32,000 bases of DNA from Candidatus Methanoperedens sp. (GCA_027460535.1 JAPZAR010000036.1:30001-62000); one strand, 5' to 3'. Positions 6,070 through 31,847 are shown, numbered from the stretch's first letter. Notes: generated by a model not told the origin, from the letters alone. Numbers and translations: made by a program.

Positions 6070-6245
6070 TCTTAACACCTCCTGCTCTCTAAATAATTTC
6101 ACTGCTTTCATATAGTTTTCTCCAAGTTTATTTAAATTGCTGTTTCTTGAATGCCTATCAGTCTATTGAAATTTCTTATCTACATTGAGGCGCAGAAGAT
6201 CGCAAATTCGATGCAATATGCTCTTCTTATACTTCTTGCAGTCTT

Positions 6246-7370: not shown

Positions 7371-7429
7371 ATTTTACTCACCTCACGAATCAATTAACAT
7401 CCCTGCCAAAGCTACCTCTTTGAGCATAA

Positions 7430-8917
7430 TTATCTCCCAAAAGGAAAAAGCCTAGGGACTTTTTTCATATACTCCCCATATTCATCGCCAATTCTTGTTC
7501 TTGAGTCTTCTTCTTCATATTCAGCTATATAGGACAGAATTAAAGCAAGAATCAATGAATATATTAAACCAATTAATGAATTCGCTGATAATGCGAGTCC
7601 TAGGGTTCCAATAATCCAACCGAGATACAAGGGATGACGAACGAATTTATAGGGACCTCTTTCTATCAATTTGTTTCCATGAATAAAAACCTCTTTTATT
7701 AGAAGATATATACTCCAGAATATGATGAATACTCCCAGTACAAAAATAAGTAATCCAATAAATGCCAATATTATTAAAATAGTTAGATTGAAAACATTCA
7801 TTATCGGCATAAAGTTTTGTGATATCAACTCTAGATAAAGAAGTATATTTATTATTATAATAAAAACTTGAAATCCAGTTATAGATTTTCTTGATAAATC
7901 ACCAAAACGTGAAAAATGTCTTCTATATCTAAAGGCTACATACAACATTGCCAATAATCCAGCGAATGAAAAAACTATTTCAAATAATGGTAGTGGATAG
8001 GTTACATTGTAGATGTTCTCTTTATTATCTATAAAATTATTCGAGTCGATAATGCTGTCAGACGAAAACATATAAATTCCATAATTATTGCTCGATAAGG
8101 TGGTGTTTTGTAATCTGTTATTTCTCGATTTATCGAGATAGATACCATTATGAGTTTTCGAGATAGCGTTGTTTTGTAACAGGTTATCTCCCCCCAAAAG
8201 GAGATAGAAACCGTTGTTTTTATTTGAGTCAGCATTGTTACCTGAAAGAGAATTTTCACTCGAATCCCACAAATAGACACCCCGGTCATTGCCTGATGCG
8301 GTGTTGTTTACGATCATGTTGTTGTTCGAGCCCCAAAGTTCGATGCCGCTAACATTATTAAAGTTCACGATGTTATTTATTATCGTATTATTATCACTTA
8401 TAGAAACAACGAAAATGCCAATGTTTTCGTTTGAGTTTGCAATGTTATTTGCAATGATATTATTGCCCGAATTCCAGAGCCATATCCCATCACCATTATT
8501 TGATACGTTGTTATCAGAAATATTGCAATAATCCACGCCCAATTCAAGATATATTCCGGCGGCAAATTCAGTGAGTTTATTGGATGTTGTTCCTGTGATC
8601 GTAAGCCCTTTAATATTCACATAATCCGCTGTTACTGTAAATACATTGTTTTTGGGATTTGCTGCTATGATCTTCGAAAATGCAGATCCATTTTCAGATC
8701 GAATGGTCAATCTCTTGTTCACCTTAATATTCTCGGAATAAGTTCCATCCCTGACAATAATCATATCCCCACCATTTGAAGCATTAACTGCTTCCTGAAT
8801 AGTTATGTGATTATCAGGCACATAAATCGTTGATGCACTGGTTATCGTTGCGGAAGCAACAAAAAATAATATTGTTCCAATTGTGACAAATGCAATCAAA
8901 CCAAATTTCTTATTCAT
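7430..8917 (-). CDS. Fusion protein: signal peptide, NosD-like right-handed beta-helix, and C-terminal multi-TM ICMT/PEMT-family methyltransferase domain
   Basis: Beta-helix repeats are present (NNxIxxNxxGIxLWxSxNN). Several hydrophobic helices follow, then GPYKFVRHPLYLGWIIGTLGLAL...AEYEEEDSRTRIGDEYGEYMKKVP, which fits the ICMT-type RHPxY and EE..L..FG..Y..Y signature. The start at 8917 (MNKKFGLIAFVTIGTILFFVASA) forms an ATGA overlap with the upstream small ORF. The ORF track alternative is 8941. Confidence 0.7.
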   Translation of the reverse strand: MNKKFGLIAFVTIGTILFFVASATITSASTIYVPDNHITIQEAVNASNGGDMIIVRDGTYSENIKVNKRLTIRSENGSAFSKIIAANPKNNVFTVTADYVNIKGLTITGTTSNKLTEFAAGIYLELGVDYCNISDNNVSNNGDGIWLWNSGNNIIANNIANSNENIGIFVVSISDNNTIINNIVNFNNVSGIELWGSNNNMIVNNTASGNDRGVYLWDSSENSLSGNNADSNKNNGFYLLLGGDNLLQNNAISKTHNGIYLDKSRNNRLQNTTLSSNNYGIYMFSSDSIIDSNNFIDNKENIYNVTYPLPLFEIVFSFAGLLAMLYVAFRYRRHFSRFGDLSRKSITGFQVFIIIINILLYLELISQNFMPIMNVFNLTILIILAFIGLLIFVLGVFIIFWSIYLLIKEVFIHGNKLIERGPYKFVRHPLYLGWIIGTLGLALSANSLIGLIYSLILALILSYIAEYEEEDSRTRIGDEYGEYMKKVPRLFPFGR

Positions 8918-9060
8918 TCTGTATCCATTGATATAAGCCATACAGCAAGTCCTGCAAATGTTCCTATCAAGAGCCAGGATTCACCAGCATCCCTTGCCCT
9001 AAGTGTTGCAATTATGAATAGCATCCCCAATCCTTTGGTGATTATATATTTCAAACTCAT
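8914..9060 (-). CDS. Putative 48-aa membrane micro-protein
   Basis: Manual translation gives MSLKYIITKGLGMLFIIATLRARDAGESWLLIGTFAGLAVWLISMDTE. Its TGA overlaps the ATG at 8917 of the downstream gene (ATGA). It is too short to appear in the ORF track. Confidence 0.3.
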   Translation of the reverse strand: MSLKYIITKGLGMLFIIATLRARDAGESWLLIGTFAGLAVWLISMDTE

Positions 9061-9175
9061 ACTGATAATTTCGATCTCCAAAAGTTAAACTGAATCCCAA
9101 GAAATTTTAAGAATATATCAAACATATTTTATCCCCTCTCTTTTTATCATTTAAATTCAAACCGCAATTTTCCAT

Positions 9176-9333
9176 GATAAATCACTTCTTATCTAACTTC
9201 ACTATCTGTTTTCCAATTCTTTGATTGAATTTTACAGTAGATTATTTGTATATAATAATTGGTAGTTTATAATATCTGTTACCTGAAAACCGTAATAAAA
9301 GGGGTTTTGTTACGGAAATAGTGTAACAAATCT
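9176..9333 (-). promoter_or_regulatory. Conserved promoter cassette, copy c
   Basis: Plus strand reads gttacctgaaaaccgtaataaaaggggttttgttacggaaatagtgtaacaaa, preceded by ttgtatataataattggtagtttataata. On the minus strand a 22-codon ORF (9175-9107) follows, then genes 9060-7430. Confidence 0.5.
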
Positions 9334-9408
9334 GTTTTTAAATGATTGGGGTCTTCGCGGAATCCTTGTTGAAAAAGGAATAAGACCTTCAATCCTTATC
9401 TTGAATAT

Positions 9409-10029
9409 TTAAAGGTCTTCGTCTTGACCTTGAAATATAGATGGAAATATTAATGGCAATAGCATTATTAAAATACCCAGATACCCAGAAAACTCGGGGT
9501 AAGTGCAGACAAAAGAGCCTTTATATACGGGATCGCCATTAAGATTTTCCCCGCATGTCCCAGGCGTGTCCACTGCCTCTCCTATATGATATGTTCCCAC
9601 TGTGATGGGTGTGCCCGTGACTGTATTGGTCATGGGGTAAATCCCCGATAACGTGTTGCCATACGGATTCACCGACATCCCAGCCGTGTTCACTCCAAAA
9701 CCGATTTGATTTGTTCCCGCTGTGAAGGGTATGGCCGTGACTGTATTGGTCGTCGGGTAAATCCCCGATACGGTGTTGCCATAAAGATTCACCGACATCC
9801 CAGCCGTATTCACTCCAAAACCGATTTGATTTGTTCCCACTGTGATGGGTGTGCCCATGACTGTATTGGTCATCGGGTAAATCCCCGATACGGTGTTGCC
9901 ACCATAATTCGTTACGTAAGTATACGTTTCCGCCTGCGCTGGCAATCCTGACCCAAGTAGGATCGTCATAGTTATTATTATTGAAACTATAATGAGTTCA
10001 TAACTTTTATGTGGTTTATTCTTGGTCAT
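9409..10029 (-). CDS. Secreted, membrane-anchored protein with three degenerate YVTN-like repeats
   Basis: A signal peptide (ILLGSGLPAQA) is followed by YVTNYGGNTVSGIYPMTNTVMGTPITVGTNQIGFGVNTAGMS, present about three times. This aligns with the YVTN repeat of genes 22217/23730 (YVTN..GG..VS.I...TNTV..T..VG.....G..VN.AG). The C-terminus has a hydrophobic segment, GYLGILIMLLPLIFPSIF. SD AAGGAGGC is present. Confidence 0.6.
   Translation of the reverse strand: MTKNKPHKSYELIIVSIIITMTILLGSGLPAQAETYTYVTNYGGNTVSGIYPMTNTVMGTPITVGTNQIGFGVNTAGMSVNLYGNTVSGIYPTTNTVTAIPFTAGTNQIGFGVNTAGMSVNPYGNTLSGIYPMTNTVTGTPITVGTYHIGEAVDTPGTCGENLNGDPVYKGSFVCTYPEFSGYLGILIMLLPLIFPSIFQGQDEDL
9559..9900. repeat. 120-nt tandem repeat, about 2.8 units, inside CDS 9409-10029
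   Basis: Near-identical units start at 9900, 9780 and 9660 on the minus strand, each beginning ggcaacac (GNT). Confidence 0.8.
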
Positions 10030-10190
10030 TTTGCCTCCTTATTAAACCATCTACTTGTATTTGATATAATTTTACAGTAGATTAATTGTGGATAAGAATT
10101 AGTTGTTTATAAGATCGGTTACAGAAAACTGGGAACAAATGGGATTTTGTTACGGAAATGGCGTAACAAATCTTTTTAACCTGACTTTAT
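10030..10190 (-). promoter_or_regulatory. Conserved promoter cassette, copy d (best exemplar)
   Basis: Dyad 1 is tttgttacggaaatggcgtaacaaa at 10146-10170. Dyad 2 is gttacagaaaactgggaacaaa at 10118-10139. TATA-like sequences and the SD AAGGAGG lie before the ATG at 10029. Confidence 0.55.
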
Positions 10191-10412
10191 TCATTCGAAG
10201 TTCATCACCCAGCCCGGCAGGCATGTGTCTCTTCGTCCGTTAACAGCGACGCAGGACAGCGACCTGGTCATTATTCATGCACTGTTGTATCATCTTTGAA
10301 AGATGCAAATCTGGCAAGATCACTTGCTTAAACCGAAACATTGATAAATAATCATGATAATTTCATGTTAACACCTGAAGGTTTGGTGTCAAAATAGAGG
10401 ATTATTTATAAA

Positions 10413-12155
10413 ATGGCAGTTAATGCAGCATTAATACTTGTTGTAGGTATCCTAATATTTATTCATGTATATTATTTACGTATAAAAAAAATTGATAGAT
10501 ATGTAATGAAATGTGACCCTTCTATACGTACTCCTGCGGATAGATATAATGATGGGGTGGAATTTTTCCCCACAAATAAAAACGTCCTTTTTGGTTTCCA
10601 GTTCAAAAGCATAGCAGGACTCGCACCTGTCGTGGGCGCTATCGTAGCCGGCTTGCTGTGGGGTTGGCTTCCTGCGCTTATCTGGATACTTGTGGGGAAT
10701 ATTTTTATTGGCTGGGTGCAGGATTATTTTTCATGCATGATGTCAGTCAGGAAGGATGGCAAGAGCTTGGGTCCGCTTTCTTATGAGCTAATAAGCCCGC
10801 GCACACGGAACATCCTTCTGATATTCCTTCTTTTCTACCTGATACTCCTTATGGCAGCTTTTTCAAGTCTGGCAGCAGTGATGCTATCAAAAAATATCAA
10901 CTACATCATACCCACAGCTACAGTACTTTTAGCAGGTGTACTTGTGGGATTGAAGATGTACCGGTTGAAGATGGACCCAATCATAGCAACAAGCGCAGGC
11001 ATAGTATTGATCGTAGGTGGAATATGGGCAGGTTCTTTGAATATGATCCCTAACCCGATTGGCGGAAGATGGGTGATCGATTTCCCATATTTCGGTACCT
11101 GGGGGATCCAAGTTCCGAATATCTGGCTTACAGTTCTACTTGCGATCTGCCTTGTAGCGGCTCTAACTTCCATCTGGAAATTTACCCAGCCCACGATTTA
11201 CATGTTCTTTTATGTAGTGTTGTTCGGAATCATAGCCCTCGCAGCCACTCTCATATTCGGGAATCATGTTTATTTAATGCCTGAATATACAGAATTTTTC
11301 GCTGGAATGTCAGGCACAGCAGCAATGCCGCTATGGCCGCTTCTTTTTGTAACGATCGCCTGCGGCTCTATATCTGGCTGGCACAGCCTTGTGAGCAGTT
11401 CAGCTACCTCTAAGCAAATAGACAAAGAGACAGATGTTGCACCTGTGACTGCGGGCTCCATGCTTGCAGAAGGTATGCTTGCGCTCCTTGCGCTGTCAAT
11501 AGTTGCCACGCTATCAGTTGCGGATACGACTGATGCACATGGAAATCCACTCTCAGCAGCAGACATTTTCTCAAAGGGAGCAGCAAATCTTCTTGGCGGA
11601 AGCGATACTGCGAACGCTTATGTCGGGCTCATATTCGTTGCTCTTGCGCTTGCTGTGATGATTCTTATTGTGCGACTTGGAAGGTTAACAATCCACGAAA
11701 TCGGGGGAGAGAAAATACCACTCCTTAGGAATAAGATAATAGCTTCTGTGCTTTTCCTTGCTGCGACTTTTTTTCTTGCATCTCCCAATTTCGGAGGTAC
11801 ATGGATATATATCTGGGTGCTGTTCGGGGGATCAAACCAGCTCATGGCAGGACTTTCACTCATGATAATTACGTTATGGCTTATTGATACAAAGAAAGGT
11901 TGGATGATATCTGGAATCCCCGGTGTATTCATGATCGTGACATCGATAGCAGCTCTCAGTTATGTAAGCTACCAGTCGCTAACCAGGGGATTTACTTCCC
12001 TTCTGGTCTCTTCCGAAACTTTTGATACACCTTCCGGAAACATTGTTGCAGGTATTATAGGGATAATCTTGATAATCGCAGCTATTATCATGTGCTATGA
12101 TATATTCATGGCATTCAAAAGGAGAAAAGACGGAATTAATTCGGGAATGTCCTGA
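10413..12155 (+). CDS. cstA: Carbon starvation protein A family transporter (CstA/BtsT-type peptide/pyruvate transporter)
   Basis: 580 aa polytopic membrane protein. The N-terminal motif FGFQFKSIAGLAPVVGAIVAGLLWGWLPALIWILVGNIFIGWVQDY resembles the CstA signature (HF.AIAGAGPLVGP...GWLP..LWI..G.V..G.VHD). Confidence 0.8.
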   Translation: MAVNAALILVVGILIFIHVYYLRIKKIDRYVMKCDPSIRTPADRYNDGVEFFPTNKNVLFGFQFKSIAGLAPVVGAIVAGLLWGWLPALIWILVGNIFIGWVQDYFSCMMSVRKDGKSLGPLSYELISPRTRNILLIFLLFYLILLMAAFSSLAAVMLSKNINYIIPTATVLLAGVLVGLKMYRLKMDPIIATSAGIVLIVGGIWAGSLNMIPNPIGGRWVIDFPYFGTWGIQVPNIWLTVLLAICLVAALTSIWKFTQPTIYMFFYVVLFGIIALAATLIFGNHVYLMPEYTEFFAGMSGTAAMPLWPLLFVTIACGSISGWHSLVSSSATSKQIDKETDVAPVTAGSMLAEGMLALLALSIVATLSVADTTDAHGNPLSAADIFSKGAANLLGGSDTANAYVGLIFVALALAVMILIVRLGRLTIHEIGGEKIPLLRNKIIASVLFLAATFFLASPNFGGTWIYIWVLFGGSNQLMAGLSLMIITLWLIDTKKGWMISGIPGVFMIVTSIAALSYVSYQSLTRGFTSLLVSSETFDTPSGNIVAGIIGIILIIAAIIMCYDIFMAFKRRKDGINSGMS

Positions 12156-18814: not shown

Positions 18815-19693
18815 TTGGAGAAAGAAAAGAATGGAGTAATTTCTAAAATCAAATATCTTGAAAAAAATTATTCTTCTGGAGACCTACTTGATGAAGAATA
18901 TGAAGAACTTAGGAAACCGCTTGTTGACACGGTTAAAAAGCTCGATGAAGAGCTAAAAATATTTAGCGGGAAAGAATCAGAAGATCCAACTTTGTTATGG
19001 ACTTATAAACAAGGTTACGATATTGTTCGCATAATTTTTTCTATGATTTTTGGTGCTTTTATATTTGTTATTATCATTATTCCTTTTATCGCCTTTATAA
19101 GTGGTGGTTCCAATGAAATAATTAACAAATTAGCACCAATTATCTCTTTTATAGGAGCTTTAATTGGAGCTTTTTTGGCAGTTGATCACCGTATTTCATT
19201 TACTTCTATCTCTTCTGATGGCAAATATATAGCAGCAACATATGCTAAAGGAAGTTTCTATGACGATGCCCTCATCTTCAACAAAGATGGAAAGCTCTTG
19301 TGGTGGGATGATGTTTACCGAACCTCCATTTCTCATTCTTCAGATGGCTCTAGCATAGCTATAGGCACTCAAAATAATCTAAAATTATTCGATATTAATG
19401 GTAAACTCTTATGCAAATATATGCGACAAGGCTTCGTACAATGTATCTCTATATCTTCTGATGGTAGCTTTATAGCGGCGGTTTTTAATCTTGGTGGAGA
19501 AGAATGTGATAAGAATAAGATTTTTCTGTTTGATCGACAGGGAACTAGCTTATGGGACTACGATATTATCTCACTTAAAGAAACTGTAGTATCAATTCCA
19601 TCTGATGGTTCATTTGTAGCTGTAATCTCTGGTAATGATATTTACTTATTTGATAGACAAGGAAGGGTTCTATGGAAACATAAAACAGATTGA
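18815..19693 (+). CDS. Membrane-anchored beta-propeller repeat protein (PQQ/WD40-like SSDG..I..G repeats), N-terminal half with blades 1-4; ends at an in-frame TGA
   Basis: It has a coiled-coil N-terminus and two hydrophobic helices. Four repeats of the type ISSDGSxIAxxxxxxxIxLFDxxGxxLW follow. The only available start is TTG at 18815. An in-frame TAG lies about 32 codons upstream of that TTG, with no ATG or GTG in between. Confidence 0.55.
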   Translation: MEKEKNGVISKIKYLEKNYSSGDLLDEEYEELRKPLVDTVKKLDEELKIFSGKESEDPTLLWTYKQGYDIVRIIFSMIFGAFIFVIIIIPFIAFISGGSNEIINKLAPIISFIGALIGAFLAVDHRISFTSISSDGKYIAATYAKGSFYDDALIFNKDGKLLWWDDVYRTSISHSSDGSSIAIGTQNNLKLFDINGKLLCKYMRQGFVQCISISSDGSFIAAVFNLGGEECDKNKIFLFDRQGTSLWDYDIISLKETVVSIPSDGSFVAVISGNDIYLFDRQGRVLWKHKTD

Positions 19694-19705: not shown

Positions 19706-20164
19706 ATGGCCATCTCTTCAGATGGCACCCGCATAGCAGCAGGTTCTGAAAGGGAAGTTCTTTTATTCAGTGATAAAGGTGCACATTTGTGGAGCTATCT
19801 TGCAGAAAGCCGGATGCTATGTATTTCTATCTCCTCTAATAGTTCATATGTAGTAGTTGGGTCACAGGATAATAACATATATCTATTTAATAAAAAAGGA
19901 GAAATTCTATGGAAATACAAAACAGGTGACATGGTTAATAGTGTCACAATTTCATCTGATAGCTCATATATAGTAGCCGGATCTAAAGACAGAAGCATTT
20001 ATTTTTTTAATAAAAATGGAGAGCTTCTATGGAAATACAAAATAGGTGGGAACGTTCATAGCGTTTCAGTTTCGTCAGATGGTTCATATATAGTAGCAGG
20101 GTCCCAAAAAGGGATTTACTTTTTCAAATTCGACATAGAGAGAGCCAGGAAATTAAAGACTTAG
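19706..20164 (+). CDS. Beta-propeller repeat protein, C-terminal half with blades 5-8; same frame as 18815-19693
   Basis: Four further repeats are present: ISSDGTRIAAGS..., ISISSNSSYVVVGSQDNNIYLFNKKGEILWKYKTG, and similar. It sits in the same reading frame as the upstream ORF, separated only by TGA plus four codons. Confidence 0.55.
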   Translation: MAISSDGTRIAAGSEREVLLFSDKGAHLWSYLAESRMLCISISSNSSYVVVGSQDNNIYLFNKKGEILWKYKTGDMVNSVTISSDSSYIVAGSKDRSIYFFNKNGELLWKYKIGGNVHSVSVSSDGSYIVAGSQKGIYFFKFDIERARKLKT

Positions 20165-21181: not shown

Positions 21182-21433
21182 TATGCAGGATCTTCAGATA
21201 ACTAATTTTATCGACTGAACAATAATATCAGCGCAGAAGAAAATGACCGTTTCAATTCATGACGACATGTTAATGCCTCCATAATCTTTTTTGGGTAGCG
21301 TGGTAACGGTCCGATTACCAACATGACCACCTCGGTCGACTTGGTGACTGGACCTTTCCGCGCAGCTGTCGATGTGCATAAAACAACATGCGAATGGCTG
21401 TATGCAGCGAAAAACCCCCAGAGAGGTAAAACA

Positions 21434-21873
21434 ATGGAGAAAAAATACGTTGGAATAGACATCCATCGAGACTATTGAGTAGCCTGTGTCCAGGATCAGA
21501 AAGGAGAAATAGTATGAATTTCGGTTTGGAAACAATATAGAAGCAATAAATAAAGTCAAAGAGAAGCTGGGGAACAACAATTCACATATCGCAATAGAAT
21601 CCACCGGGAACATGTGGGTAGTATTGTGGGATAAGCTTGAGGAGATCGAATCTGATCTTCATCTTGTCCATCCTCTCAAGACAAAGGCGATAGCATCGAA
21701 CAAATTAAATAACGATAAACTTGATGCTAAGTTGTTCGCAAAATTGTTAAGAGGCGATATGTTGGTATGCTCGTATGTTCCTCACCGAAGACGTGCGGGA
21801 TAAGAGAGAAACTGTCAGGCTCAGAGCTTCATTAGTAAGGATGAGAACGCAAGCAACAAACAAGATATGGTCT
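21434..21873 (+). mobile_element. Decayed and truncated IS110-family (DEDD) transposase gene, N-terminal domain only
   Basis: Reading across frames gives MEKKYVGIDIHRDY* / EFRFGNNIEAINKVKEKLGNNNSHIAIESTGNMWVVLWDKLEEIESDLHLVHPLKTKAIASNKLNNDKLDAKLFAKLLRGDMLVCSYVP / EDVRDKRETVRLRASLVRMRTQATNKIW. This fits the IS110 N-terminal pattern (vGIDv.K, E.TG, K.D..DA, vP....lR.L.R.R..L). There is one in-frame stop and two frameshifts, and the C-terminal domain is absent. Confidence 0.7.
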
Positions 21874-22216
21874 TTTCTTATTGGTGTTTTGGGTCTGGCA
21901 CTATTCGGATTGTCTTTTTACGCGGGGAGGCAGCTATTGAAAGGCACGTCCGAAGGGGTCAAACTGTCCATGTGGGCACTGCCTGCCGGTTGTAATTTTG
22001 AAAGGATTTTAATTGAAATTGAATCAAAAATGGTACAAAAAAAAAGTAACAATTGTTATATTCATATATATTATCTATATCATAATGGTTAACACCGTTA
22101 ACCGTGGAATGGATGCCTCATAATAGCAGAGGCAGGCTATAACATACTGCAGAAGTAGTGGTAGATTACCTTTGCCGAGCATCTAACGAAATACGAAATG
22201 AATAGGAGGTAAAAAA

Positions 22217-23587
22217 ATGAAATATTTAGTCCGGTTGCTAGCAGTACTGGCAATCTTATTGTTGGCAGGAAGCGCAGGCGCGGCGCCGTTTGCATATATC
22301 ACGAACCTTGGCGGCCACAGTGTCTCTGTGATTGACATAGCAACGAACACTGTTACAGCCACCATGACTGTAGGACCCAGTCCTTATGGAGTTGCAGTCA
22401 ACCCGGCGGGAACAAAGGTATATGTGACGAACGAAAACGACCACAATGTCTCTGTGATTGATACTGCCACGAACACTGTTACAGCAACCGTGAATGTAGG
22501 AAGCACTCCTTGGGGAGTTGCAGTCAACCCGGCGGGAACAAAGGTATACGTGGCGAACTATAACAGCAACAGCGTCTCTGTGATTGATACAGGCACGAAC
22601 ACTGTTACAGCCACCGTGCCTGTAGGAAGCGGTCCTTATGGAGTTGCAGTCAACCCGGCGGGAACAAAGGTATACGTGGCGAACTATAACAGCAACAGCG
22701 TCTCTGTTATTGATACAGGCACGAACACTGTTACAGCCACCGTGCCTGTAGGAAGCGGTCCTTATGGAGTTGCAGTCAACCCGGCGGGAACAAAGGTATA
22801 CGTGACGAACAATAACAACAACAGCGTCTCTGTGATTGACATAGGCACGAACACTGTTACAGCCACCGTAAATGTAGGAAGCTATCCTTCTGGAGTTGCA
22901 GTAAACCCGGCTGGAACAAAGGTATACGTGACGAACGAATTTAGCAACAACGTATCTGTTATTGACACAGCCACGAACGCTGTTACAGCAACCGTGAAAG
23001 TAGGAAGCTATCCTGTTGGAGTCGCAGTAAACCCGGCGGGAACAAAGGTATACGTGGCGAACTATTTCAACAACAATGTCTCCGTTATTGATACTGCCAC
23101 GAACACTGTCACAGCCAGCGTGAATGTAGGAGGACAGCCTATTGCTTTCGGTCAGTTTATAGGTCCTGAGGCAGGCTCGACTGTGGGCTACAGCGCCACT
23201 GTCGTAGGCGGACAGAACACTTATGTCCAGGCATCCAACGGCAACTTTGGCACAATACTTGCAGGACAGAGCAAAATAATCAATAACTCTGTTACCCTGA
23301 ACAACACGGGCGATGCGACCGCCACCGTTGATGCAAGGTTGAGTGACAATGCTGGCGGTGTGTATGGACTTGTAAGTGGAAGCAACGTTCTCGGAGGTTC
23401 TAACTTTTCCCTTGCAATCACCAATACTGGAAACTGGACATCATTAAATGATGCCGGGACGAATGCCAGGGTTGCAACTGCGCCTGGCTTTGGCGCTTTA
23501 ACAATACTTAACGCAAGACTCTTCGTGCCTCAAATGCAGCCGGGAGGAGCGTACAGCGGAACCGTGATTCTGACCTTTGGAAATTAG
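22217..23587 (+). CDS. Secreted 7-blade YVTN beta-propeller protein with an unassigned ~140-aa C-terminal beta-rich module
   Basis: The signal peptide is MKYLVRLLAVLAILLLAGSAGA. Seven 42-aa repeats follow: VYV(T/A)Nxxxx(N/S)VSVIDTATNTVTATVxVGSxPxGVAVNPAGTK. The C-terminal module starts GSTVGYSATVVGGQNTYVQ and ends AYSGTVILTFGN. SD AGGAGGT is present. Confidence 0.85.
   Translation: MKYLVRLLAVLAILLLAGSAGAAPFAYITNLGGHSVSVIDIATNTVTATMTVGPSPYGVAVNPAGTKVYVTNENDHNVSVIDTATNTVTATVNVGSTPWGVAVNPAGTKVYVANYNSNSVSVIDTGTNTVTATVPVGSGPYGVAVNPAGTKVYVANYNSNSVSVIDTGTNTVTATVPVGSGPYGVAVNPAGTKVYVTNNNNNSVSVIDIGTNTVTATVNVGSYPSGVAVNPAGTKVYVTNEFSNNVSVIDTATNAVTATVKVGSYPVGVAVNPAGTKVYVANYFNNNVSVIDTATNTVTASVNVGGQPIAFGQFIGPEAGSTVGYSATVVGGQNTYVQASNGNFGTILAGQSKIINNSVTLNNTGDATATVDARLSDNAGGVYGLVSGSNVLGGSNFSLAITNTGNWTSLNDAGTNARVATAPGFGALTILNARLFVPQMQPGGAYSGTVILTFGN
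22283..23167. repeat. 126-nt coding tandem repeat array (7 YVTN blades); units 22541-22666 and 22667-22792 differ at 1 nt
   Basis: Direct reading shows the two adjacent units are identical except gtgattgat versus gttattgat. Confidence 0.85.
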
Positions 23588-23611
23588 GTGTAACAGCACC
23601 TGATTTCCATA

Positions 23612-23618
23612 TTTTTTT
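23612..23618 (+). terminator. Oligo-T run (T7) 25 nt after the stop of gene 22217-23587; candidate archaeal terminator
   Basis: taggtgtaacagcacctgatttccatattttttt. The same 3-prime flank is duplicated after the paralog. Confidence 0.35.
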
Positions 23619-23729
23619 AGGTGAGAGTATGAGAAAAATCTCGACATATCTATTGTGCAGGGTGAGCATATGGGAATTACAGCGGGATGGTAATAGTGAC
23701 GTTTCGAATAATGTTTAGGAGGTAAAAAA

Positions 23730-25100
23730 ATGAAATATTTAGTCAGGTTGCTAGCAGTGCTGGCAATATTATTGTTGGCAGGAAGCGCAGGCGCGGCGCC
23801 GTTTGCATATATCACGAACGATGACAGCAACAGTGTCTCTTTGATTGACACTGCAACAAATACTGTTACAGCTACCGTGCCTGTAGGAAGTTTTCCTTAT
23901 GGAGTCGCAGTAAACCCGGCGGGAACAAAGGTATATGTGACGAACCAAAACAGCAACAAAGTCTCTGTGATTGATACTGCCACAAACACTGTGTCAGCCA
24001 GCGTGATTGTAGGAAGCTCTCCTTATGGAGTTGCAGTCAACCCGGCGGGAACAAAGGTATACGTGGCGAACTTAAACAGCAACAACGTCTCTGTGATTAA
24101 TACTGCCACAAACACTGTGTCAGCCAGTGTGATTGTAGGAAGCTCTCCTTATGGAGTTGCAGTAAACCCAGCGGGAACAAAGGTATACGTGGCGAACTAT
24201 AACAACAAAAGCGTCTCTGTGATTGATACTGCAACAAACGCTGTTACAGCCACCGTGAATGTAGGAAGCTATCCTCTTGGAGTTGCAGTAAACCCGGCGG
24301 GAACAAAGGTATACGTGGCGAACTATAACAACAACAGCGTCTCTGTGATTGACACAGCCACAAACACTGTTACAGCAACCGTAACGGTAGGAACCGGTCC
24401 TTTTGGAGTTGCAGTCAACCCGGCGGGAACAAAGGTATATGTGACGAACCAAAACAGCAACAGCGTCTCTGTGATTGATACTGCCACTAACACTGTTACA
24501 GCTACTGTAACTGTAGGAAGCGGGACTTTAGGAGTTGCAGTAAACCCGGCGGGAACAAAGGTATACGTGGCGAACGTTGGCAGCAAGAACGTCTCTGTGA
24601 TTGACACTGCCACGAACACTGTTACAGCCACAGTGCCTGTCGGAACCAGTCCTGTTGCTTTCGGTCAGTTTATAGGTCCTGAGGCAGGCTCGACTGTGGG
24701 CTACAGCGCCACTGTCGTAAGCGGACAGAACACTTATGTCCAGGCATCCAACGGCAACTTTGGCACAATACTTGCAGGACAGAGTAAGATAATCAATAAC
24801 TCTGTTACCCTGAACAACACAGGCGATGCGACCGCAACCGTTGATGCAAGGTTGAGTGACAATGTTGGCGGTGTGTATGGACTTGTAAATGGCAGCAACA
24901 TAATCGGCGCCTCCAACTTTTCGCTTGCAAAAACAAATACGGGAAACTGGACATCATTAAATAATGCCGGGACGAATGCCAGGGTTGCAACTGCGCCGGG
25001 CTTCGGGGCATTGACAGTACTTGACGCAAGACTCTTCGTGCCCCAGGCGCAGCCGGGAGGAGCGTACAGCGGAACTGTGATTTTGACGTTTGGAAATTAG
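23730..25100 (+). CDS. Secreted 7-blade YVTN beta-propeller protein with C-terminal module (tandem paralog)
   Basis: It has the same length (456 aa), the same signal peptide and the same C-terminal module as 22217-23587. The 5-prime ~90 nt, the 3-prime ~420 nt and the 3-prime flank are almost identical, whereas the blade sequences differ. Confidence 0.85.
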   Translation: MKYLVRLLAVLAILLLAGSAGAAPFAYITNDDSNSVSLIDTATNTVTATVPVGSFPYGVAVNPAGTKVYVTNQNSNKVSVIDTATNTVSASVIVGSSPYGVAVNPAGTKVYVANLNSNNVSVINTATNTVSASVIVGSSPYGVAVNPAGTKVYVANYNNKSVSVIDTATNAVTATVNVGSYPLGVAVNPAGTKVYVANYNNNSVSVIDTATNTVTATVTVGTGPFGVAVNPAGTKVYVTNQNSNSVSVIDTATNTVTATVTVGSGTLGVAVNPAGTKVYVANVGSKNVSVIDTATNTVTATVPVGTSPVAFGQFIGPEAGSTVGYSATVVSGQNTYVQASNGNFGTILAGQSKIINNSVTLNNTGDATATVDARLSDNVGGVYGLVNGSNIIGASNFSLAKTNTGNWTSLNNAGTNARVATAPGFGALTVLDARLFVPQAQPGGAYSGTVILTFGN

Positions 25101-25124
25101 GTGTAACAGCACCTGATTTCCATA

Positions 25125-25130
25125 TTTTTT
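25125..25130 (+). terminator. Oligo-T run (T6) after gene 23730-25100; candidate archaeal terminator
   Basis: taggtgtaacagcacctgatttccatatttttt. Confidence 0.3.
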
Positions 25131-25152
25131 AACGCGCAGGAATGAACCGCAT

Positions 25153-25451
25153 ATGAACGCAGATAAAAACAGATGCATAAACGACCTCGCTGCTAAAGTC
25201 GAGGCGCGCTTCAACGACAGCACAGCAAGAGTGTTCGGATTAATCAGCGGCGCCAATGTGCTCAACGCCACAAACTTCGCTTTAGGAATTCCAGGCGTGC
25301 CTGTTGCTTAAGATAACAGCGGCGCCGATGTGCAGGTAGCGGTCGCGCCGCCGGGTGTGACTGCGATGGATGCGAGGCTGGGTGTGCCTGTGGATGCGGT
25401 TGCTGGGGATTATAGCGGGACTATGATATTGACGTTTTCGAATAATATATG
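25153..25451 (+). pseudogene. Decayed copy of the C-terminal module gene (distal two thirds only, in-frame TAA)
   Basis: Manual translation gives MNADKNRCINDLAAKVEARFNDSTARVFGLISGANVLNATNFALGIPGVPVA*DNSGADVQVAVAPPGVTAMDARLGVPVDAVAGDYSGTMILTFSNNI*. This aligns with ATVDARFNDS...YGLVSG..VLNASNFAL...ARLSVPQAQPAGDYSGTIILTFSN of gene 25462. Confidence 0.65.
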
Positions 25452-25461
25452 AGGTGGTAAA

Positions 25462-25971
25462 ATGAGAAACATGGGTAGAGCAAAAATATTGCTTGCAGTA
25501 ATAGTTACTGCAAGTTTTGCAAACACAGGTGCGGCTGAAACCAACTCAATCGGCTACAGCGCCACCGTTGCTACTGGTCAAAACACATACGTTCAATCCT
25601 CCAACGGCACCTTCGGCACAATATTGGTGGGACAGAGCAAGATAATCAATAACTCTGTGACACTGAACAACACTGGTGATGTGAACGCAACAGTAGATGC
25701 GAGATTCAATGATAGCAGAAATGGCACATACGGGCTTGTAAGCGGTCGCTTTGTGCTCAACGCTTCTAACTTTGCATTAGCAAGAACCAACGAAAACTTG
25801 GCTGTCGAAAACATGAATGTCTTGAGCGACTCGGGCTCTGATGTCAGAATTACGATTGCACAAGCCTTTGGTGCCATAACAAGATTGGCTGCACGACTTT
25901 CCGTGCCTCAAGCCCAACCAGCAGGTGATTACAGCGGCACTATTATATTAACATTCTCCAATTCAGAATAG
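25462..25971 (+). CDS. Secreted stand-alone copy of the C-terminal module (169 aa)
   Basis: A signal peptide (MRNMGRAKILLAVIVTASFANTGAA) is followed by IGYSATVATGQNTYVQSSNGTFGTILVGQSKIINNSVTLNNTGDVNATVDARFND...AGDYSGTIILTFSNSE. It is collinear with the C-terminal ~140 aa of both YVTN proteins. SD GAGGTGGT is present. Confidence 0.75.
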   Translation: MRNMGRAKILLAVIVTASFANTGAAETNSIGYSATVATGQNTYVQSSNGTFGTILVGQSKIINNSVTLNNTGDVNATVDARFNDSRNGTYGLVSGRFVLNASNFALARTNENLAVENMNVLSDSGSDVRITIAQAFGAITRLAARLSVPQAQPAGDYSGTIILTFSNSE

Positions 25972-25982
25972 GTGTCAAAATT

Positions 25983-26843
25983 ATGGAAAAAATGATAAAA
26001 ATTGTTTATGCATTGTTATTTTTCATCCTCATGATAAACAGCGCCAGCGCCCTCGGCATATCGAGCGCCAACTTCGGCGATGTGGAGCAGGGCAAGACCT
26101 ATAACCAGACTGTCACGCTGGAAAATTCCCAGTATGATTTCGATAACCATTTCGTGGTTACGATTGACGGAAACATAAAAGGCTGGACAAAAGTCACACC
26201 AGTCGAGTTTGATCTCGCAAAAGGGAATGTAATGCAGATAACCCTCGACCTTGAAGTGCCTCAGGATGCCGGTCTTGGCGAGCTCACAGGTACTGTAACT
26301 GCTGAAGGTAAAAAGACTGTGCCTACTTCTGGCGGTGGCGGAGGCGCAAATGTTGGATATGCGGTAGCTACGAAGGGAAATATCTATGCCAATGTGATAA
26401 AACCTGGAGCTGTTGCTTCGGTTGAAATAACAGGAGCTGAAGTTCCCGCAACCGTGTCGGCAGGCAGTGTCGCTAGGTTTGCAGTTACAGCAAAGAATAA
26501 CGGAAATGTAGCCACTTCTGCCAGCTTTAAACTGGAGGTCAAAAAGGATGGCAATGTTATGGCAAGCATTCCGAGCACTCCTGTTGATTTTGCTCTCGGT
26601 GAAGAAAAGACCGTTAAGCTTTTCTGGGACACTCAAGGGATAACAGATGGTAATTATGATGTGTATGTCGAAGCCGCAACAATTGCTAAAGGCTCGGAGA
26701 GGACAACATCGGCTGCGTATAAGCCCGTGCCTTTGATCATAGGTGAAGAAAAAGGAGGGAGCAACAGCACTCTGATTGCAGCCGCCGGAATAGTCGTTCT
26801 ATTTGTAGTTCTCTTAGTAGTGGTCTTAAAGCGACGAAAATGA
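25983..26843 (+). CDS. Secreted, C-terminally membrane-anchored protein with two Ig-like (NEW3/CARDB-like) domains
   Basis: It has a signal peptide. Domain 1 reads GKTYNQTVTLENS...GWTKVTPVEFDLAKGNVMQITLDLEVPQDAGLGELTGTVTAEG. A Gly linker, SGGGGGAN, follows. Domain 2 reads ARFAVTAKNNGNVATSASFKLEV...GNYDVYVEA. The C-terminus is a TM helix plus KRRK. Confidence 0.65.
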   Translation: MEKMIKIVYALLFFILMINSASALGISSANFGDVEQGKTYNQTVTLENSQYDFDNHFVVTIDGNIKGWTKVTPVEFDLAKGNVMQITLDLEVPQDAGLGELTGTVTAEGKKTVPTSGGGGGANVGYAVATKGNIYANVIKPGAVASVEITGAEVPATVSAGSVARFAVTAKNNGNVATSASFKLEVKKDGNVMASIPSTPVDFALGEEKTVKLFWDTQGITDGNYDVYVEAATIAKGSERTTSAAYKPVPLIIGEEKGGSNSTLIAAAGIVVLFVVLLVVVLKRRK

Positions 26844-27286
26844 GATTGTATTGGCTCATTCCTCTCATTTTTTTATTTTTCTTCTTAGCTATTATATGGA
26901 ATATTCCGGTTGGGAAATTCAGTGAGACACTGCCTGTTGTAATAACAATAAGCGAGCCAGGACAAATCGGAGTGTATACAACAAAGGAGCCCCAGAGGAT
27001 GTTCAACTTTGGAACCACATTCCCGGGAACCAAGGTTCAAAAAACAATGAATCTGACAAGGGGAAATGAGCCGCCAGCGAAGATTCATATCACCGTAAAC
27101 GGGACGATACAGAACTGGACCATCTTAAATAGGAACGACTTTGTCTTGGATGAGCCTACTCAGGTAGAAGTAACAATTGCAATTCCAGATAATGCGGAGA
27201 AAGGGACATATGGCGGAAATATATCAATAGATTATATTACTACCTACGGTATGCATGCAATTAAGTATTTTCATACTTTAAAATAA
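26840..27286 (+). CDS. Small N-terminally anchored protein with one Ig-like (NEW3-like) domain
   Basis: It has an ATGA overlap with the upstream gene. An N-terminal TM helix is present, then TKVQKTMNLTRGNEPPAKIHITVNGTIQNWTILNRNDFVLDEPTQVEVTIAIPDNAEKGTYGGNISIDYI. Confidence 0.6.
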   Translation: MRLYWLIPLIFLFFFLAIIWNIPVGKFSETLPVVITISEPGQIGVYTTKEPQRMFNFGTTFPGTKVQKTMNLTRGNEPPAKIHITVNGTIQNWTILNRNDFVLDEPTQVEVTIAIPDNAEKGTYGGNISIDYITTYGMHAIKYFHTLK

Positions 27287-28882: not shown

Positions 28883-29530
28883 TCACTTGCACAGCTCTTT
28901 GATCTTCTCAAGAACAAGAATGGCGTCTTCCCTCTTTACATCCACTTCATTTCCCTTGAAAAAATCTAACACTCTTTCCTTTTCAGGATCTGCAATGATC
29001 CCCTTTTTTGCACATTCATTGATTATACTCCTGAAATTCCTGTCAGGATAGAATATTTTCCTGGTGATGTCCAGGATGCCGGCTGTCTCTTCTGCGGTCA
29101 ATATCCCCTTATCCTGTGCAAGCCTGAGCGTCAGCCGGAGATTTACAAGCGGCACTGACAGTGGCTGCATCGTTTCCGGGTCAAAAGTCAATGCAACTTC
29201 GTCGTCCGATTCGATAACACCGCTTCGGTACATTTCATATATCCTCCCTACGCCTATCATCCCGTAGGGCTCAAGTTCATATGCGCGAAGCGCCCCCATG
29301 CTTCCCCCGCCCACCACGATAATGCCCATTTTAAGGGCTTCGATTATCTCGCGGTGCGCTACTGCAGCGCTGTCGAAAAAAACCCCGTCGATTATCCCGA
29401 TAATTTCCGGCGCCGATCTTAAGAGCCTCCTGATATCTTCACGCCTTACGGGCGGGCGATAATCTGCATCCAGTATCTTTCCTGCATCGCGGTGGCTTAT
29501 GCTCGTGCCCGTGTATACCACGGCCTTCAT
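28883..29530 (-). CDS. tfuA: TfuA-like protein (partner of YcaO in peptide backbone thioamidation)
   Basis: 215 aa: IIGIIDGVFFDSAAVAHREIIEALKMGIIVVGGGSMGALRAYELEPYGMIGVGRIYEMYRSGVIESDDEVAL, which is typical of the TfuA domain. It has a 4-nt ATGA overlap with ycaO. Confidence 0.85.
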   Translation of the reverse strand: MKAVVYTGTSISHRDAGKILDADYRPPVRREDIRRLLRSAPEIIGIIDGVFFDSAAVAHREIIEALKMGIIVVGGGSMGALRAYELEPYGMIGVGRIYEMYRSGVIESDDEVALTFDPETMQPLSVPLVNLRLTLRLAQDKGILTAEETAGILDITRKIFYPDRNFRSIINECAKKGIIADPEKERVLDFFKGNEVDVKREDAILVLEKIKELCK

Positions 29531-30777
29531 TTAGCCACTCTCTTCTTTTTCTTCTTGATGCGCTCACCCTTTCTCTCGCGGTCAAGGGTATAGAGTTCAA
29601 ATGCGGGGATTATCGCCCTGATAACGGGGACGTCAACGCCTCTTGAAAGGTCAACGATTATTGTCCCGTCAGCGATCCCTTCCAGACGCTCCACCACTGT
29701 TCTGATGTTTGCAGAGGGCGTGTTGCCTGAACTGTCCTCCATCTCATCCATGCTTGTGGATGGAAGCTCTTCATACCAGTAGCTGTTCATTTTCTTCATG
29801 TGTTCATAACCAAAGGTGCGCACCACGCGCTCCCTGTCCGTATCCTCACGCGCCCCATGTATCTGGACCACGCGGCTCTGGGCTGCCTCGGTAAGAGCCC
29901 GAGTGACCGCTATCTCAGGCGACAGGTGCGCTCCAGCTCCCATCACGAGAAGCGCAGGGTCCTTCAGAACTGTATCATCAAGCGCTGTAACCACGGTTGG
30001 AATATCCACATCAGAATCGAGGAGCCAGATTTTGACCTTTATCCCCGTTTCTTCCATTCTCCTCTTGAGTTCATAATTCAGGCCGTCGCTTTCTGAAAGC
30101 ATGATCTCTTTCCCGGGATTGTGGGTGTACTCGGCAATGCTGAGGGCATCCCTTTCTATCACTTCGAGCAGGCCGTGGAGCACGGCTTCCTCGATGGTAT
30201 TCCCGGATGCAAGCCCGTTGGTGTTGCTCCGGAAAAGCTTACTTGCGCCCTGGGGATTGTACGGATGGAAAACTGCATTGGCAGGGACGAAAACTTCAAT
30301 GTCGTTCATGAAATCATACCCCATGACCCATTCGAGGCTTGTAAACTCAGAGACTGGCTGTGGCAGGAGGAGGGCATCTGGGTATAAAGTGGGATAGTTC
30401 TCACTGAGCGACTCATAAGTATCAACGGTCCTCTCCGCCTTGAGCGGAACGCCGCTCAGGTTGATGCTGACCTCGGGCTGCTCCGCAAGACAGCGCTCAA
30501 AGCTTTCCATGATCGCAGAGATCCTTGCATTGGTCTCGGTGGCGCCTTTTCCGGAATATATGGATATAGCACCCTCCGCTGCGCTCGGTCTTATGGCTGA
30601 GAAAACCGGAATGCCCACACGGTCAAGGTCAGTGATATTGGCTATTCTGGTCACGCCGATCCTGGGGAGGAGCTTTGTTGTATTGGCAAGCGTGGTCTCT
30701 GGGTCGAGCACGCGCTGGGTACCTTCGATGTATTTGATATTGGGGTCGAGGTTTATCTTGCTCATTGATTCCTGCAA
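29527..30777 (-). CDS. ycaO: YcaO-family ATP-dependent cyclodehydratase/thioamidation enzyme
   Basis: 416 aa: [44 protein letters not shown]...[27 protein letters not shown], which are YcaO signature regions. It lies immediately upstream of, and is translationally coupled to, tfuA. Confidence 0.85.
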
Positions 30778-30869: not shown

Positions 30870-31847
30870 ATGACACTTGATTCAAGAATTTCTGAGCTTG
30901 CAAAAGCTGCAAAACCCACCGTGGCGATCATCGGTCTGGGCGGCGCAGGCTGCAATATCGTTTCGTGGATAGCGCAAAAAGAAATGGTTGGAAGCAGGAT
31001 TATTGCGGCTGATACTGATGCGACGCATTTGATGGGCGCAAAGGCGGATGCGAAGGTCCTCCTCGGTGAGCAAACCTACCAGGGAAAGGGATGCGGTGGC
31101 TTCGCCGAGCGCGGCACTGAAGCAGCCAGGGAAAGCCTCAAGGAAATTAAGGAGGAGCTAAAGGATTCAAACCTTATATTCATCATAGCAGGCCTGGGAG
31201 GCGGCTCAGGAACAGGCGCTGCGCCTGTAGTGGCGGAAGCAACACGCGAAGCAGGGATACTTACCATAGGGTGCGTGATGTTGCCTTTCAGTTATGAGCT
31301 TACACGGCGCAAGAAAGCGATCGCGGGAATAAAGGCACTTGCGGCGAGATGCGACTCACTTGTGGTCATAGACAATTCCAAGCTCCGGGCCATCGCAGGC
31401 AGTCTGCCGCTCCGTGAAGGTTTCGCAGTAGCGAACGAATTCGTAGGCGCCTTTATCAGGAACATAACAGAAACCATAACGCAGCCCAGCCTTGTGAACC
31501 TCGATTATTCCGACCTTCGAAGTGTTGTCGAGCGCGGTGGGATATCGGCGATCGGTATCGGAGATGCTGAGGGTGAGAACCGCATAGAGAAAGCAATGGA
31601 ACAGGCACTTTCGACGCCCCTGCTTGATGTTGCGGATATTTCGGGTACTTATGGGGTTCTTGTCCATATAGCGGGCGGCGAGGATATGACCCTTGGCGAA
31701 GTCACCCAGGCGGGCGAGATCATCCTCCAGAAAGCGCCGAATACCGGGCGCATCGTATGGGGTGCGAAAGTGGATGAGTCGCTTGCAGGACGTGTGAAGG
31801 TGACTGCGGTGCTGACTGGCGTCACGGATCCGAACAAATTGAAGTAA
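30870..31847 (+). CDS. ftsZ: FtsZ-family tubulin-like GTPase (short, 325 aa, without the long C-terminal tail)
   Basis: Motifs seen are VAIIGLGGAGCNIV, TDATHL, IFIIAGLGGGSGTGAAPVVAE (a variant tubulin signature), LTIGCVMLPFSYE, VVIDNSKL, LVNLDYSDLRSVV, LSTPLLD and VTAVLTGV. The paralog assignment (FtsZ1/2 versus FtsZ-like) was not determined. Confidence 0.75.
   Translation: MTLDSRISELAKAAKPTVAIIGLGGAGCNIVSWIAQKEMVGSRIIAADTDATHLMGAKADAKVLLGEQTYQGKGCGGFAERGTEAARESLKEIKEELKDSNLIFIIAGLGGGSGTGAAPVVAEATREAGILTIGCVMLPFSYELTRRKKAIAGIKALAARCDSLVVIDNSKLRAIAGSLPLREGFAVANEFVGAFIRNITETITQPSLVNLDYSDLRSVVERGGISAIGIGDAEGENRIEKAMEQALSTPLLDVADISGTYGVLVHIAGGEDMTLGEVTQAGEIILQKAPNTGRIVWGAKVDESLAGRVKVTAVLTGVTDPNKLK

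Follow-up and report, generated by a model that had tools for sequence, protein, structure and literature searches.

A predicted pilin-like C-terminal module and two membrane-anchored partners: a candidate strand-complementation surface assembly in Candidatus Methanoperedens

What do the six neighbouring plus-strand units at positions 22217-27286 of a 32,000-nucleotide (nt) stretch of Candidatus Methanoperedens sp. DNA (GCA_027460535.1, JAPZAR010000036.1:30001-62000; hereafter the window, meaning this whole stretch) make at the cell surface? An earlier note on this DNA had proposed an undescribed assembly of secreted proteins that share a C-terminal beta module of about 140 amino acids (aa) and lie beside membrane-anchored immunoglobulin (Ig)-like partners, in the manner of a pilus or an S-layer-associated complex. 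Here, we find a gene set that is conserved in other archaea, a module that is held strictly at the C-terminus of its proteins, a predicted pilin-like fold of this module, and a partner, p286, with a tandem-Ig-plus-transmembrane build. On these grounds, we think it moderately probable that the cluster encodes a strand-complementation surface assembly in which a platform of p286 and a smaller membrane protein, p148, would tether, and possibly polymerise, the module-bearing proteins. The fold search and the synteny described below favour the assembly idea of the earlier note, but a closer analogue that is not a fibre exists in the Csc/WxL clusters, and the word undescribed holds for the module family and not for the kind of system, of which Csc/WxL and archaeal filament analogues are known.

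Open reading frame (ORF) calling placed all six units, including a decayed gene, on the plus strand where the earlier note had read them, with spacers in gene order of 142, 52, 10, 11 and -4 nt:

22217-23587, plus strand: fusion protein A, 456 aa, with a signal peptide, a 7-blade YVTN propeller and a C-terminal module (ORF, TIGR02276, module profile)
23730-25100, plus strand: fusion protein B, 456 aa, a paralog of A with a signal peptide, a 7-blade YVTN propeller and a C-terminal module (ORF, TIGR02276, module profile)
25153-25451, plus strand: decayed module gene (translation, module profile)
25462-25971, plus strand: stand-alone module protein of 169 aa, made of a signal peptide and the module; a candidate for the core or major subunit
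25983-26843, plus strand: p286, 286 aa, with a signal peptide, two Ig domains and a C-terminal transmembrane helix; candidate membrane anchor and strand donor
26840-27286, plus strand: p148, 148 aa, with an N-terminal membrane anchor and one Ig domain

The two fusion proteins are as the earlier note had described them. A and B align without gaps at 85% identity, both begin with a hydrophobic signal sequence, and seven YVTN repeats were found in each (TIGR02276; E = 1e-113 in A and 2.5e-112 in B). The module occupies residues ~316-456 of A (nt 23162-23584), where the module profile matches residues 314-461 of the stop-to-stop frame with E = 3.8e-69, and nt 24675-25097 in B (E = 3.1e-70). Residues 23-167 of the 169-aa protein align to residues 316-456 of a 456-aa paralog with 61% identity (E = 2e-56), which agrees with the earlier view that this secreted protein is the module alone; it carries seven N-glycosylation sequons.

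The module of about 140 aa is a real family that has no name and has not been described. It received no above-threshold assignment in Pfam or NCBIfam, in keeping with the earlier failure to place it in a named family. The window protein matches DUF4402 (PF14352) with E = 0.0014 and 19.7 bits, below the gathering cut-off of 25.2, and DUF4402 is the only Pfam signal that recurs in the family (15/36 and 11/67 relatives, best E = 1.4e-7). The match spans profile positions 10-126 of 129 and begins downstream of the first two strands of the module. Given the better scores of some relatives, the module is probably a distant branch relative to DUF4402; no publication on DUF4402/PF14352 was found in the searchable literature, and hence no functional information comes from it. 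The module also matches HYDIN/VesB-type Ig and GH123 N-terminal domains weakly, and Pfam scans gave no TasA/Peptidase_M73 (PF12389) match. Against solved structures, one protein and two profiles returned nothing or chance matches at E<=10.

A word-indexed search with the module found 37 relatives, every one labelled hypothetical, and an exhaustive profile search found 181 representatives at E<=0.001. Of 182 module sequences in total, 112 stand alone (in a protein of at most 200 aa) and 70 belong to fusions. For 66 of these 70, no more than two residues separate the end of the module from the C-terminus. The N-terminal partners are as varied as YVTN and FG-GAP propellers, a NosD-type beta-helix, DUF2341/LamG, DUF3344 plus CARDB, fn3, an S8 subtilase and an apiosidase-like glycosidase domain. 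The N-terminal domain is thus swapped while the module is kept at the extreme C-terminus, which fits the logic of a binding domain plus an assembly domain. Stand-alone and fusion modules also partly separate by sequence, with a nearest neighbour of the same type for 96/107 stand-alone and 48/66 fusion modules. Three further ideas about the family were given up. Stand-alone modules lacking the first strand were considered as cap subunits, and just one or two cases were credible. A mean-field coupling analysis (effective number of sequences ~125) was dominated by gap artefacts, and the weak group of couplings that it gave for the first strand with the C-terminal one cannot be trusted. The idea of a C-terminal sorting domain of the type IX secretion system (T9SS) was set aside without a test, given that these cells have no outer membrane and most members are the domain alone; no T9SS-related family was seen in Pfam and NCBIfam scans of the cluster products.

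The AlphaFold2 model of the 169-aa protein is all-beta. Its predicted local distance difference test (pLDDT) score is 81.9 for the whole chain and exceeds 90 in the core, with lower confidence for the first strand (residues 30-36). In a Foldseek search of the Protein Data Bank (PDB), the model matched AbpA of the Pyrobaculum bundling pilus (7UEG, E = 1.3e-4), six entries of self-complemented monomeric FimA (for example 5NKT, E = 1.4e-4), the Sulfolobus thread subunit Saci_0406 (7PNB, E = 3.7e-3) and CanA of the Pyrodictium cannulae (9H8B, E = 2.3e-2), along with type 1 pilus rod and tip subunits, a TasA-like protein, CupE, PapE, Csu and the pilin domains of FimH and PapG. Roughly half of the 50 best matches are subunits of filaments held together by donor-strand complementation. 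The search thus did not assign the module to a known non-assembling domain; such an assignment, with no conserved synteny elsewhere, is what the earlier note would have counted against its proposal. The best matches are subunits that assemble by donor-strand complementation. The likeness to self-complemented FimA suggests that the N-terminal strand of the module, as modelled, sits in the donor-strand position. This strand follows immediately on the predicted cleavage site of the signal peptide, and its residues alternate as Y-x-A-x-V; the tyrosine is conserved in 81% of stand-alone modules and 53% of fusions.

The earlier note had also described p286 as two NEW3/CARDB-like Ig domains with a transmembrane anchor. 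CARDB scored above its cut-off at residues 151-231 (Pfam, E = 4e-5), domain 1 gave weak Ig-type matches only, and the match to NEW3 is weak (E = 0.018), as is a PapD-like match (E = 0.16). A hypothetical protein from a Candidatus Methanoperedens metagenome-assembled genome has 100% identity to p286. The AlphaFold2 model of p286 (pLDDT 83.7) has a signal helix, two beta-sandwiches and a C-terminal helix at residues 261-284 followed by KRRK. Ig domain 1 ends in a long hairpin with strands at 99-112 and 125-139 and a Gly-rich, variable and disordered tip at 113-124, and conservation along the protein is highest in the returning strand, VGYAVATKxNxYANVxKPG. Foldseek with the p286 model placed WxLIP of Enterococcus faecium at ranks 2, 6 and 8 and FimC at rank 28, among matches to the CEP192 PapD-like domains, to HYDIN, to RbmA, to transglutaminase barrels and to the CsuC chaperone. 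The start of the p148 gene overlaps the p286 stop codon in ATGA (26840-26843, read from the sequence), and residues 1-28 of p148 are hydrophobic, so the overlap with a gene for a small N-terminally anchored Ig-like protein stands as it had been reported. The Ig domain of p148 is a paralog of p286 domain 1. An alignment of the module with p286 by hhalign gave E = 0.0046 but a probability of 7.6%; as a comparison of sequence profiles, this suggests a common Ig class and is not proof of homology.

The order module gene, p286, p148 was found in the window and in the related loci L001, L003, L009, L012, L013, L014, L020, L023 and L026, among others. Three other Methanoperedens contigs (L001, L003 and L005) encode a stand-alone module and then one or more fusions ending in the module, whose N-terminal part is FG-GAP in L001, DUF2341 in L003 and a NosD beta-helix in L005; in L001 and L003 a p286 ortholog of ~285 aa and then a p148 ortholog of ~148 aa follow the module genes, and the contig of L005 stops before the p286 position. 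The 4-nt overlap of p286 and p148 is kept in L001, L003, L009, L012 and L013. The gene content of five further loci is as follows:

L007: one detected fusion and three stand-alone modules; p286-like gene present; p148-like gene not detected
L009: one stand-alone module; p286-like and p148-like genes present
L011: two stand-alone modules; p286-like gene present; p148-like gene not detected
L012: three propeller fusions and a relic; p286-like and p148-like genes present
L013: one detected fusion and one stand-alone module; p286-like and p148-like genes present

As an independent check, we scanned metagenomes with p286 rather than the module as the seed. A module gene lies directly upstream of p286 in 11 of the 12 p286-seeded loci with at least ~375 nt of upstream DNA, and p148 lies 3′ of p286 in every p286-seeded locus with enough downstream DNA; overall, this holds for 15/17 loci, the exceptions being L007 and L011. 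The triad is found in Ca. Methanoperedens, in a Methanophagales archaeon (ANME-1, a group of anaerobic methanotrophic archaea) and in a Methanomicrobiales archaeon. The last of these, L012 (a contig of GCA_964551875.1, placed by its PolB gene), has three tandem propeller-module genes of ~460 aa followed by the p286-like and p148-like genes at 5693-11322, with the stand-alone module present only as a 68-aa relic; because of this host, the system is not limited to methanotrophs. Where the flanking DNA suffices, the module gene and the two Ig-like anchor genes thus nearly always occur together in this order, and synteny, the lack of which the earlier note had listed against an assembly, is conserved elsewhere.

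How could these parts work together? In the strand-complementation assembly that we favour, all products would be exported through Sec, and p286, held by its C-terminal helix, and p148, held by its N-terminal helix, would form a membrane platform in a ratio fixed by translational coupling. The module would be a pilin-like beta-sandwich in which the N-terminal strand (xGYxATV) and the C-terminal strand (YSGTVxLTF, with a free C-terminus) flank a groove, and this groove could take up the module's own strand, one from another module, or the conserved strand in the p286 hairpin. The platform would thereby hold both the stand-alone module and the module-ending proteins, and might link them into a fibre, short or long, so that binding or catalytic domains are displayed outside the cell: here two YVTN propellers, elsewhere FG-GAP, beta-helix and LamG domains, proteases and glycosidase-like enzymes. 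Tethering through a groove beside the C-terminal strand would explain the need for a free C-terminus. Contact between the parts, strand exchange, polymerisation and the end that would face the cell are steps that we infer.

Several observations weigh against this scheme. The TM-scores of the module matches are only 0.36-0.45 (the query of 169 residues includes a disordered signal peptide of 26), and beta-sandwiches match promiscuously in fold searches; with such modest scores, the likeness to pilins is evidence of a fold class and not of homology. Most fusions keep the N-terminal strand, so that it may serve a plain structural purpose and not act as a donor. The p286 model has 623 PDB matches at E<0.001, and its likeness to WxLIP and PapD-like chaperones is thus generic. 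Residues 122-126 of p286 and residues 28-32 of the module share only xVGY/xIGY, about five residues, no better than shuffled sequences. Enzyme fusions such as those with subtilase and glycosidase-like domains are atypical of pilus tips, and from L012 it follows that a dedicated major subunit is not always encoded at the locus. The idea that the p286 strand after the Gly-rich loop mimics the N-terminal hairpin of the module was dropped, its score being not above that of shuffled controls. A narrower version of the scheme, in which p286 is a membrane-tethered PapD/WxLIP-like strand donor that primes and anchors a module fibre into which any module-ending protein can be spliced, seems to us rather unlikely. 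If it were true, it would describe a programmable display filament of methanogens and methanotrophic archaea for adhesion and extracellular catalysis, and the first archaeal case of chaperone-like priming of a donor-strand-complemented fibre.

Two versions of such an assembly have to be weighed against each other. The locus might make a true fibre, in which the stand-alone module polymerises head-to-tail by donor-strand complementation, like archaeal bundling pili (ABP), threads, cannulae and Tafi, with the propeller fusions as tip or lateral adhesins and p286 and p148 nucleating and anchoring the base; we regard this as possible but not probable. The top structural neighbours of the module, all of them filament subunits assembling by donor-strand complementation, speak for it, as do the stand-alone modules, which are the majority class and reach two or three paralogs in some loci (L007, L011), and the build known from FimH and PapG, in which a binding domain at the N-terminus is joined to a pilin domain at the C-terminus; the pilin domains of both are among the module matches. 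The part list is the same as that of Tafi (PMC12337348), and, according to that source, which cites the work on cannulae, archaeal strand-donation filaments can dispense with a chaperone or usher. The low TM-scores, the N-terminal strand that fusions mostly retain, unlike FimH, the enzyme fusions in the family and the lack of an intact stand-alone module in L012 count against a fibre, and the searched literature holds no report of a filament for these organisms, nor of Methanoperedens pili. The same locus, L012, and the enzyme and LamG fusions would suit a docking complex without a filament, an archaeal analogue of Csc/WxL in which one small and one or more large module proteins sit side by side on p286, aided by p148, as a fixed surface complex that presents binding or catalytic domains; this we hold equally possible. 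All four of its parts find a match in Csc/WxL (PMC1534035, PMC9772566, PMC10599100), WxLIP ranks high among the matches of the p286 model, and stand-alone and fusion modules are partly distinct sequence types, as are WxL1 and WxL2. Such a complex has to contend with the lack of similarity to WxL, DUF916 or DUF3324 at E<=1, with a module that lacks the two Trp-x-Leu motifs, and with the absence of any WxL chain from the top 50 structural matches of the module, though one WxL complex is in the library. Moreover, these archaea have no peptidoglycan for a WxL-like domain to bind, and the matches of p286 to tandem Ig proteins are generic.

There may also be no assembly at all, the module being an ordinary C-terminal Ig-like stalk or a glycan- or S-layer-binding domain, and p286 and p148 merely co-regulated surface neighbours of the Ig superfamily. 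YVTN, beta-helix and PKD-type domains are common in surface proteins of Methanosarcinales, which counts in favour of this possibility; so do the weak common Ig-like signature of the module, p286 domain 1 and p148, seen in the hhalign result and in cross-matches, and the weak matches of the module to HYDIN/VesB-type Ig and GH123 N-terminal domains. However, a passive stalk need not end exactly at the C-terminus, a mostly stand-alone secreted form (112/182) is not expected of a stalk domain, and neither is so constant a place and order beside p286 and p148 in three or more archaeal orders. We therefore consider the absence of an assembly quite unlikely.

The window and its relatives also contain a short repeated element and relics of modules:

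23594-23617, plus strand: first copy of a 24-nt element, 6 nt 3′ of the fusion A stop (exact repeat)
23672-23716, plus strand: short remnant of a module 3′ end, GNYSGMVIVTFRIMF, immediately 5′ of the fusion B ribosome-binding site (spacer translation judged by eye)
25107-25130, plus strand: second copy of the 24-nt element, 6 nt 3′ of the fusion B stop
Relics of module 3′ ends in other loci: L001 10565-10663; L005 10518-10610; L012 5203-5406; L014 1099-1224; L028 2925-3050

The decayed gene at 25153-25451 has neither a signal peptide nor an N-terminal half. Its remains, at 25117-25308 and 25312-25449, match positions 69-103 and 115-160 of the module profile (E = 2e-13 and 1e-15) and share one frame that is broken by a TAA at 25309-25311; the earlier claim of a decayed module gene is thereby borne out. 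A truncated ORF resembling it occurs in another genome (P0170). Module relics lie upstream of or adjoin module and fusion genes in several genomes, and those in genomes other than the window's were detected with a hidden Markov model. Taken together, the relics and truncated genes suggest an old and repeated turnover of the cassette via recombination between module-coding sequences. The 24-nt element, CAGCACCTGATTTCCATATTTTTT, ends in a T-run and occurs twice in the window without a mismatch, where 0 such copies would be expected by chance. A near-identical element lies 3′ of the stand-alone module gene in Methanoperedens L001 (10487-10511) and L003 (10499-10523). The element may act as a terminator or attenuator and thereby set the ratio of the subunits.

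The genes that flank the cluster are unrelated to it and encode a methyltransferase, PfpI, TfuA-YcaO and FtsZ. Downstream, 28883-30777 (minus strand) and 30870-31847 (plus strand) hold a TfuA-YcaO pair (Pfam E = 1e-45 and 1e-83) and FtsZ; these are ordinary chromosomal genes and indicate that the cluster is located on the chromosome. As the earlier note had also observed, no sortase, peptidase or usher family was found in Pfam and NCBIfam scans of the six cluster products or of the scanned neighbouring ORFs. Directly upstream, 21323-22092 contains frameshifted ORF fragments with a weak match to IS110 transposase (E = 0.01). At the same position, three other Methanoperedens genomes encode, in divergent orientation, a 326-aa secreted, sequon-rich protein; it was not counted as a core part since it is absent from the window, though kept in those three loci. 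Elsewhere in the window, the ORF at 7430-8941 (minus strand) joins a NosD/beta-helix region to a C-terminal membrane methyltransferase region of the PEMT/ICMT type, an unusual pairing, and the adjacent ORFs at 18815-19693 and 19706-20164 (plus strand) both match a WD40/PQQ-like beta-propeller (DUF5711) and perhaps represent a single gene that a frameshift or stop codon has interrupted.

It is poorly understood how cells of Methanoperedens, of ANME-1 and of many methanogens adhere to minerals, to partners and to one another, yet anaerobic methane oxidation depends on aggregation. The cluster is a conserved and compact candidate for this role, with a predicted pilin-like domain as a universal C-terminal handle for binding proteins and enzymes and with two membrane partners. 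If the strand-complementation assembly proposed here is correct, this mode of assembly would extend to a new archaeal protein family, the design of a small protein, large proteins and a two-Ig anchor known from the WxL clusters of Firmicutes would have arisen independently in archaea or be very ancient there, and the module would serve as a defined tag for spotting surface-displayed proteins in the genomes of uncultured archaea.

Which known system does the cluster resemble most? The closest are the Csc/WxL clusters of Firmicutes and, among archaeal pili, Tafi, ABP and threads. We propose that the cluster would function in a similar way; at the sequence level, it is a member of none of them. 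FimH and PapG of chaperone-usher pili are two-domain adhesins with an N-terminal binding domain and a C-terminal pilin domain, and the module fusions share this build of two-domain tip adhesins. Among the matches of the module model are self-complemented FimA, PapE and the pilin domains of both adhesins, and p286, itself built of two Ig domains, matches FimC and CsuC as well. In chaperone-usher pili, the C-terminal carboxylate of the pilin is gripped by the chaperone; the function of the module appears likewise to be tied to a free C-terminus. The differences are that there is no outer membrane and no sequence homology, that no usher family was found in the scans of the cluster products or is annotated in the Pfam columns of the related loci, that most fusions retain the N-terminal strand, and that p286 is membrane-anchored and matches many tandem-Ig proteins better than FimC.

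The archaeal filaments that form by strand donation, namely ABP (AbpA/AbpB), threads (Saci_0406/0405), cannulae (CanA) and Tafi (TafA/E, TafC, TafF), have no chaperone-usher pair, and several of their loci include accessory beta-sandwich or membrane proteins (PMC9245690, PMC9715654, PMC12337348). Like them, the cluster encodes a secreted beta-rich subunit of ~150-200 aa whose N-terminal strand comes straight behind the signal peptide. The best fold matches of the module include AbpA, Saci_0406 and CanA, and chaperone and usher genes are absent. Tafi, with a pilin, a two-domain tip protein and two jelly-roll anchors that each have a single transmembrane helix (PMC12337348), is the nearest by part list. 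In contrast to these systems, the module has no sequence similarity to any solved subunit and no Peptidase_M73/TasA match, and its fusion to many N-terminal domains, including enzymes, has not been described for them in the literature covered. Tafi uses twin-arginine (Tat) export and a dedicated signal peptidase (PMC12337348), whereas the signal peptide here is of the Sec type and there is no dedicated signal peptidase. For this cluster, assembly is a prediction from genes and models.

The most exact architectural parallel is provided by the Csc/WxL clusters of Lactobacillales and Bacillales, which are not fibres. The module proteins gave no WxL match at E<=1 and their alignment has no conserved Trp-x-Leu pair, p286 has no DUF916 or DUF3324 match at E<=1, the fold neighbours of the module are pilins and not WxL, and the hosts are archaea without peptidoglycan. 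In addition, p148 is anchored by an N-terminal helix rather than an LPXTG motif and is a paralog of p286 domain 1. The architecture, in contrast, agrees part by part. In Csc/WxL clusters, a small protein consists of the WxL domain alone, large proteins combine a variable lectin-, adhesin- or enzyme-like N-terminus with a WxL domain that is always C-terminal, and both accompany a partner with a signal peptide, two Ig-like domains and a C-terminal transmembrane helix as well as a very small anchored protein (PMC1534035, PMC9772566); a hairpin strand of WxLIP is predicted to complete the WxL sandwich (PMC10599100). The small WxL protein CscB corresponds to the 169-aa module protein, the large WxL protein CscC to the propeller fusions, CscA/WxLIP to p286 with its signal peptide, two Ig domains and transmembrane helix, and the very small anchored protein CscD to p148. 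The shared domain is of similar size (~140-190 aa) and is found alone behind a signal peptide in both, and the window follows the Csc/WxL cluster rule of at least one partner and two domain-bearing proteins, small and large, with one p286, one small and two large module proteins, and the domain at the C-terminus.

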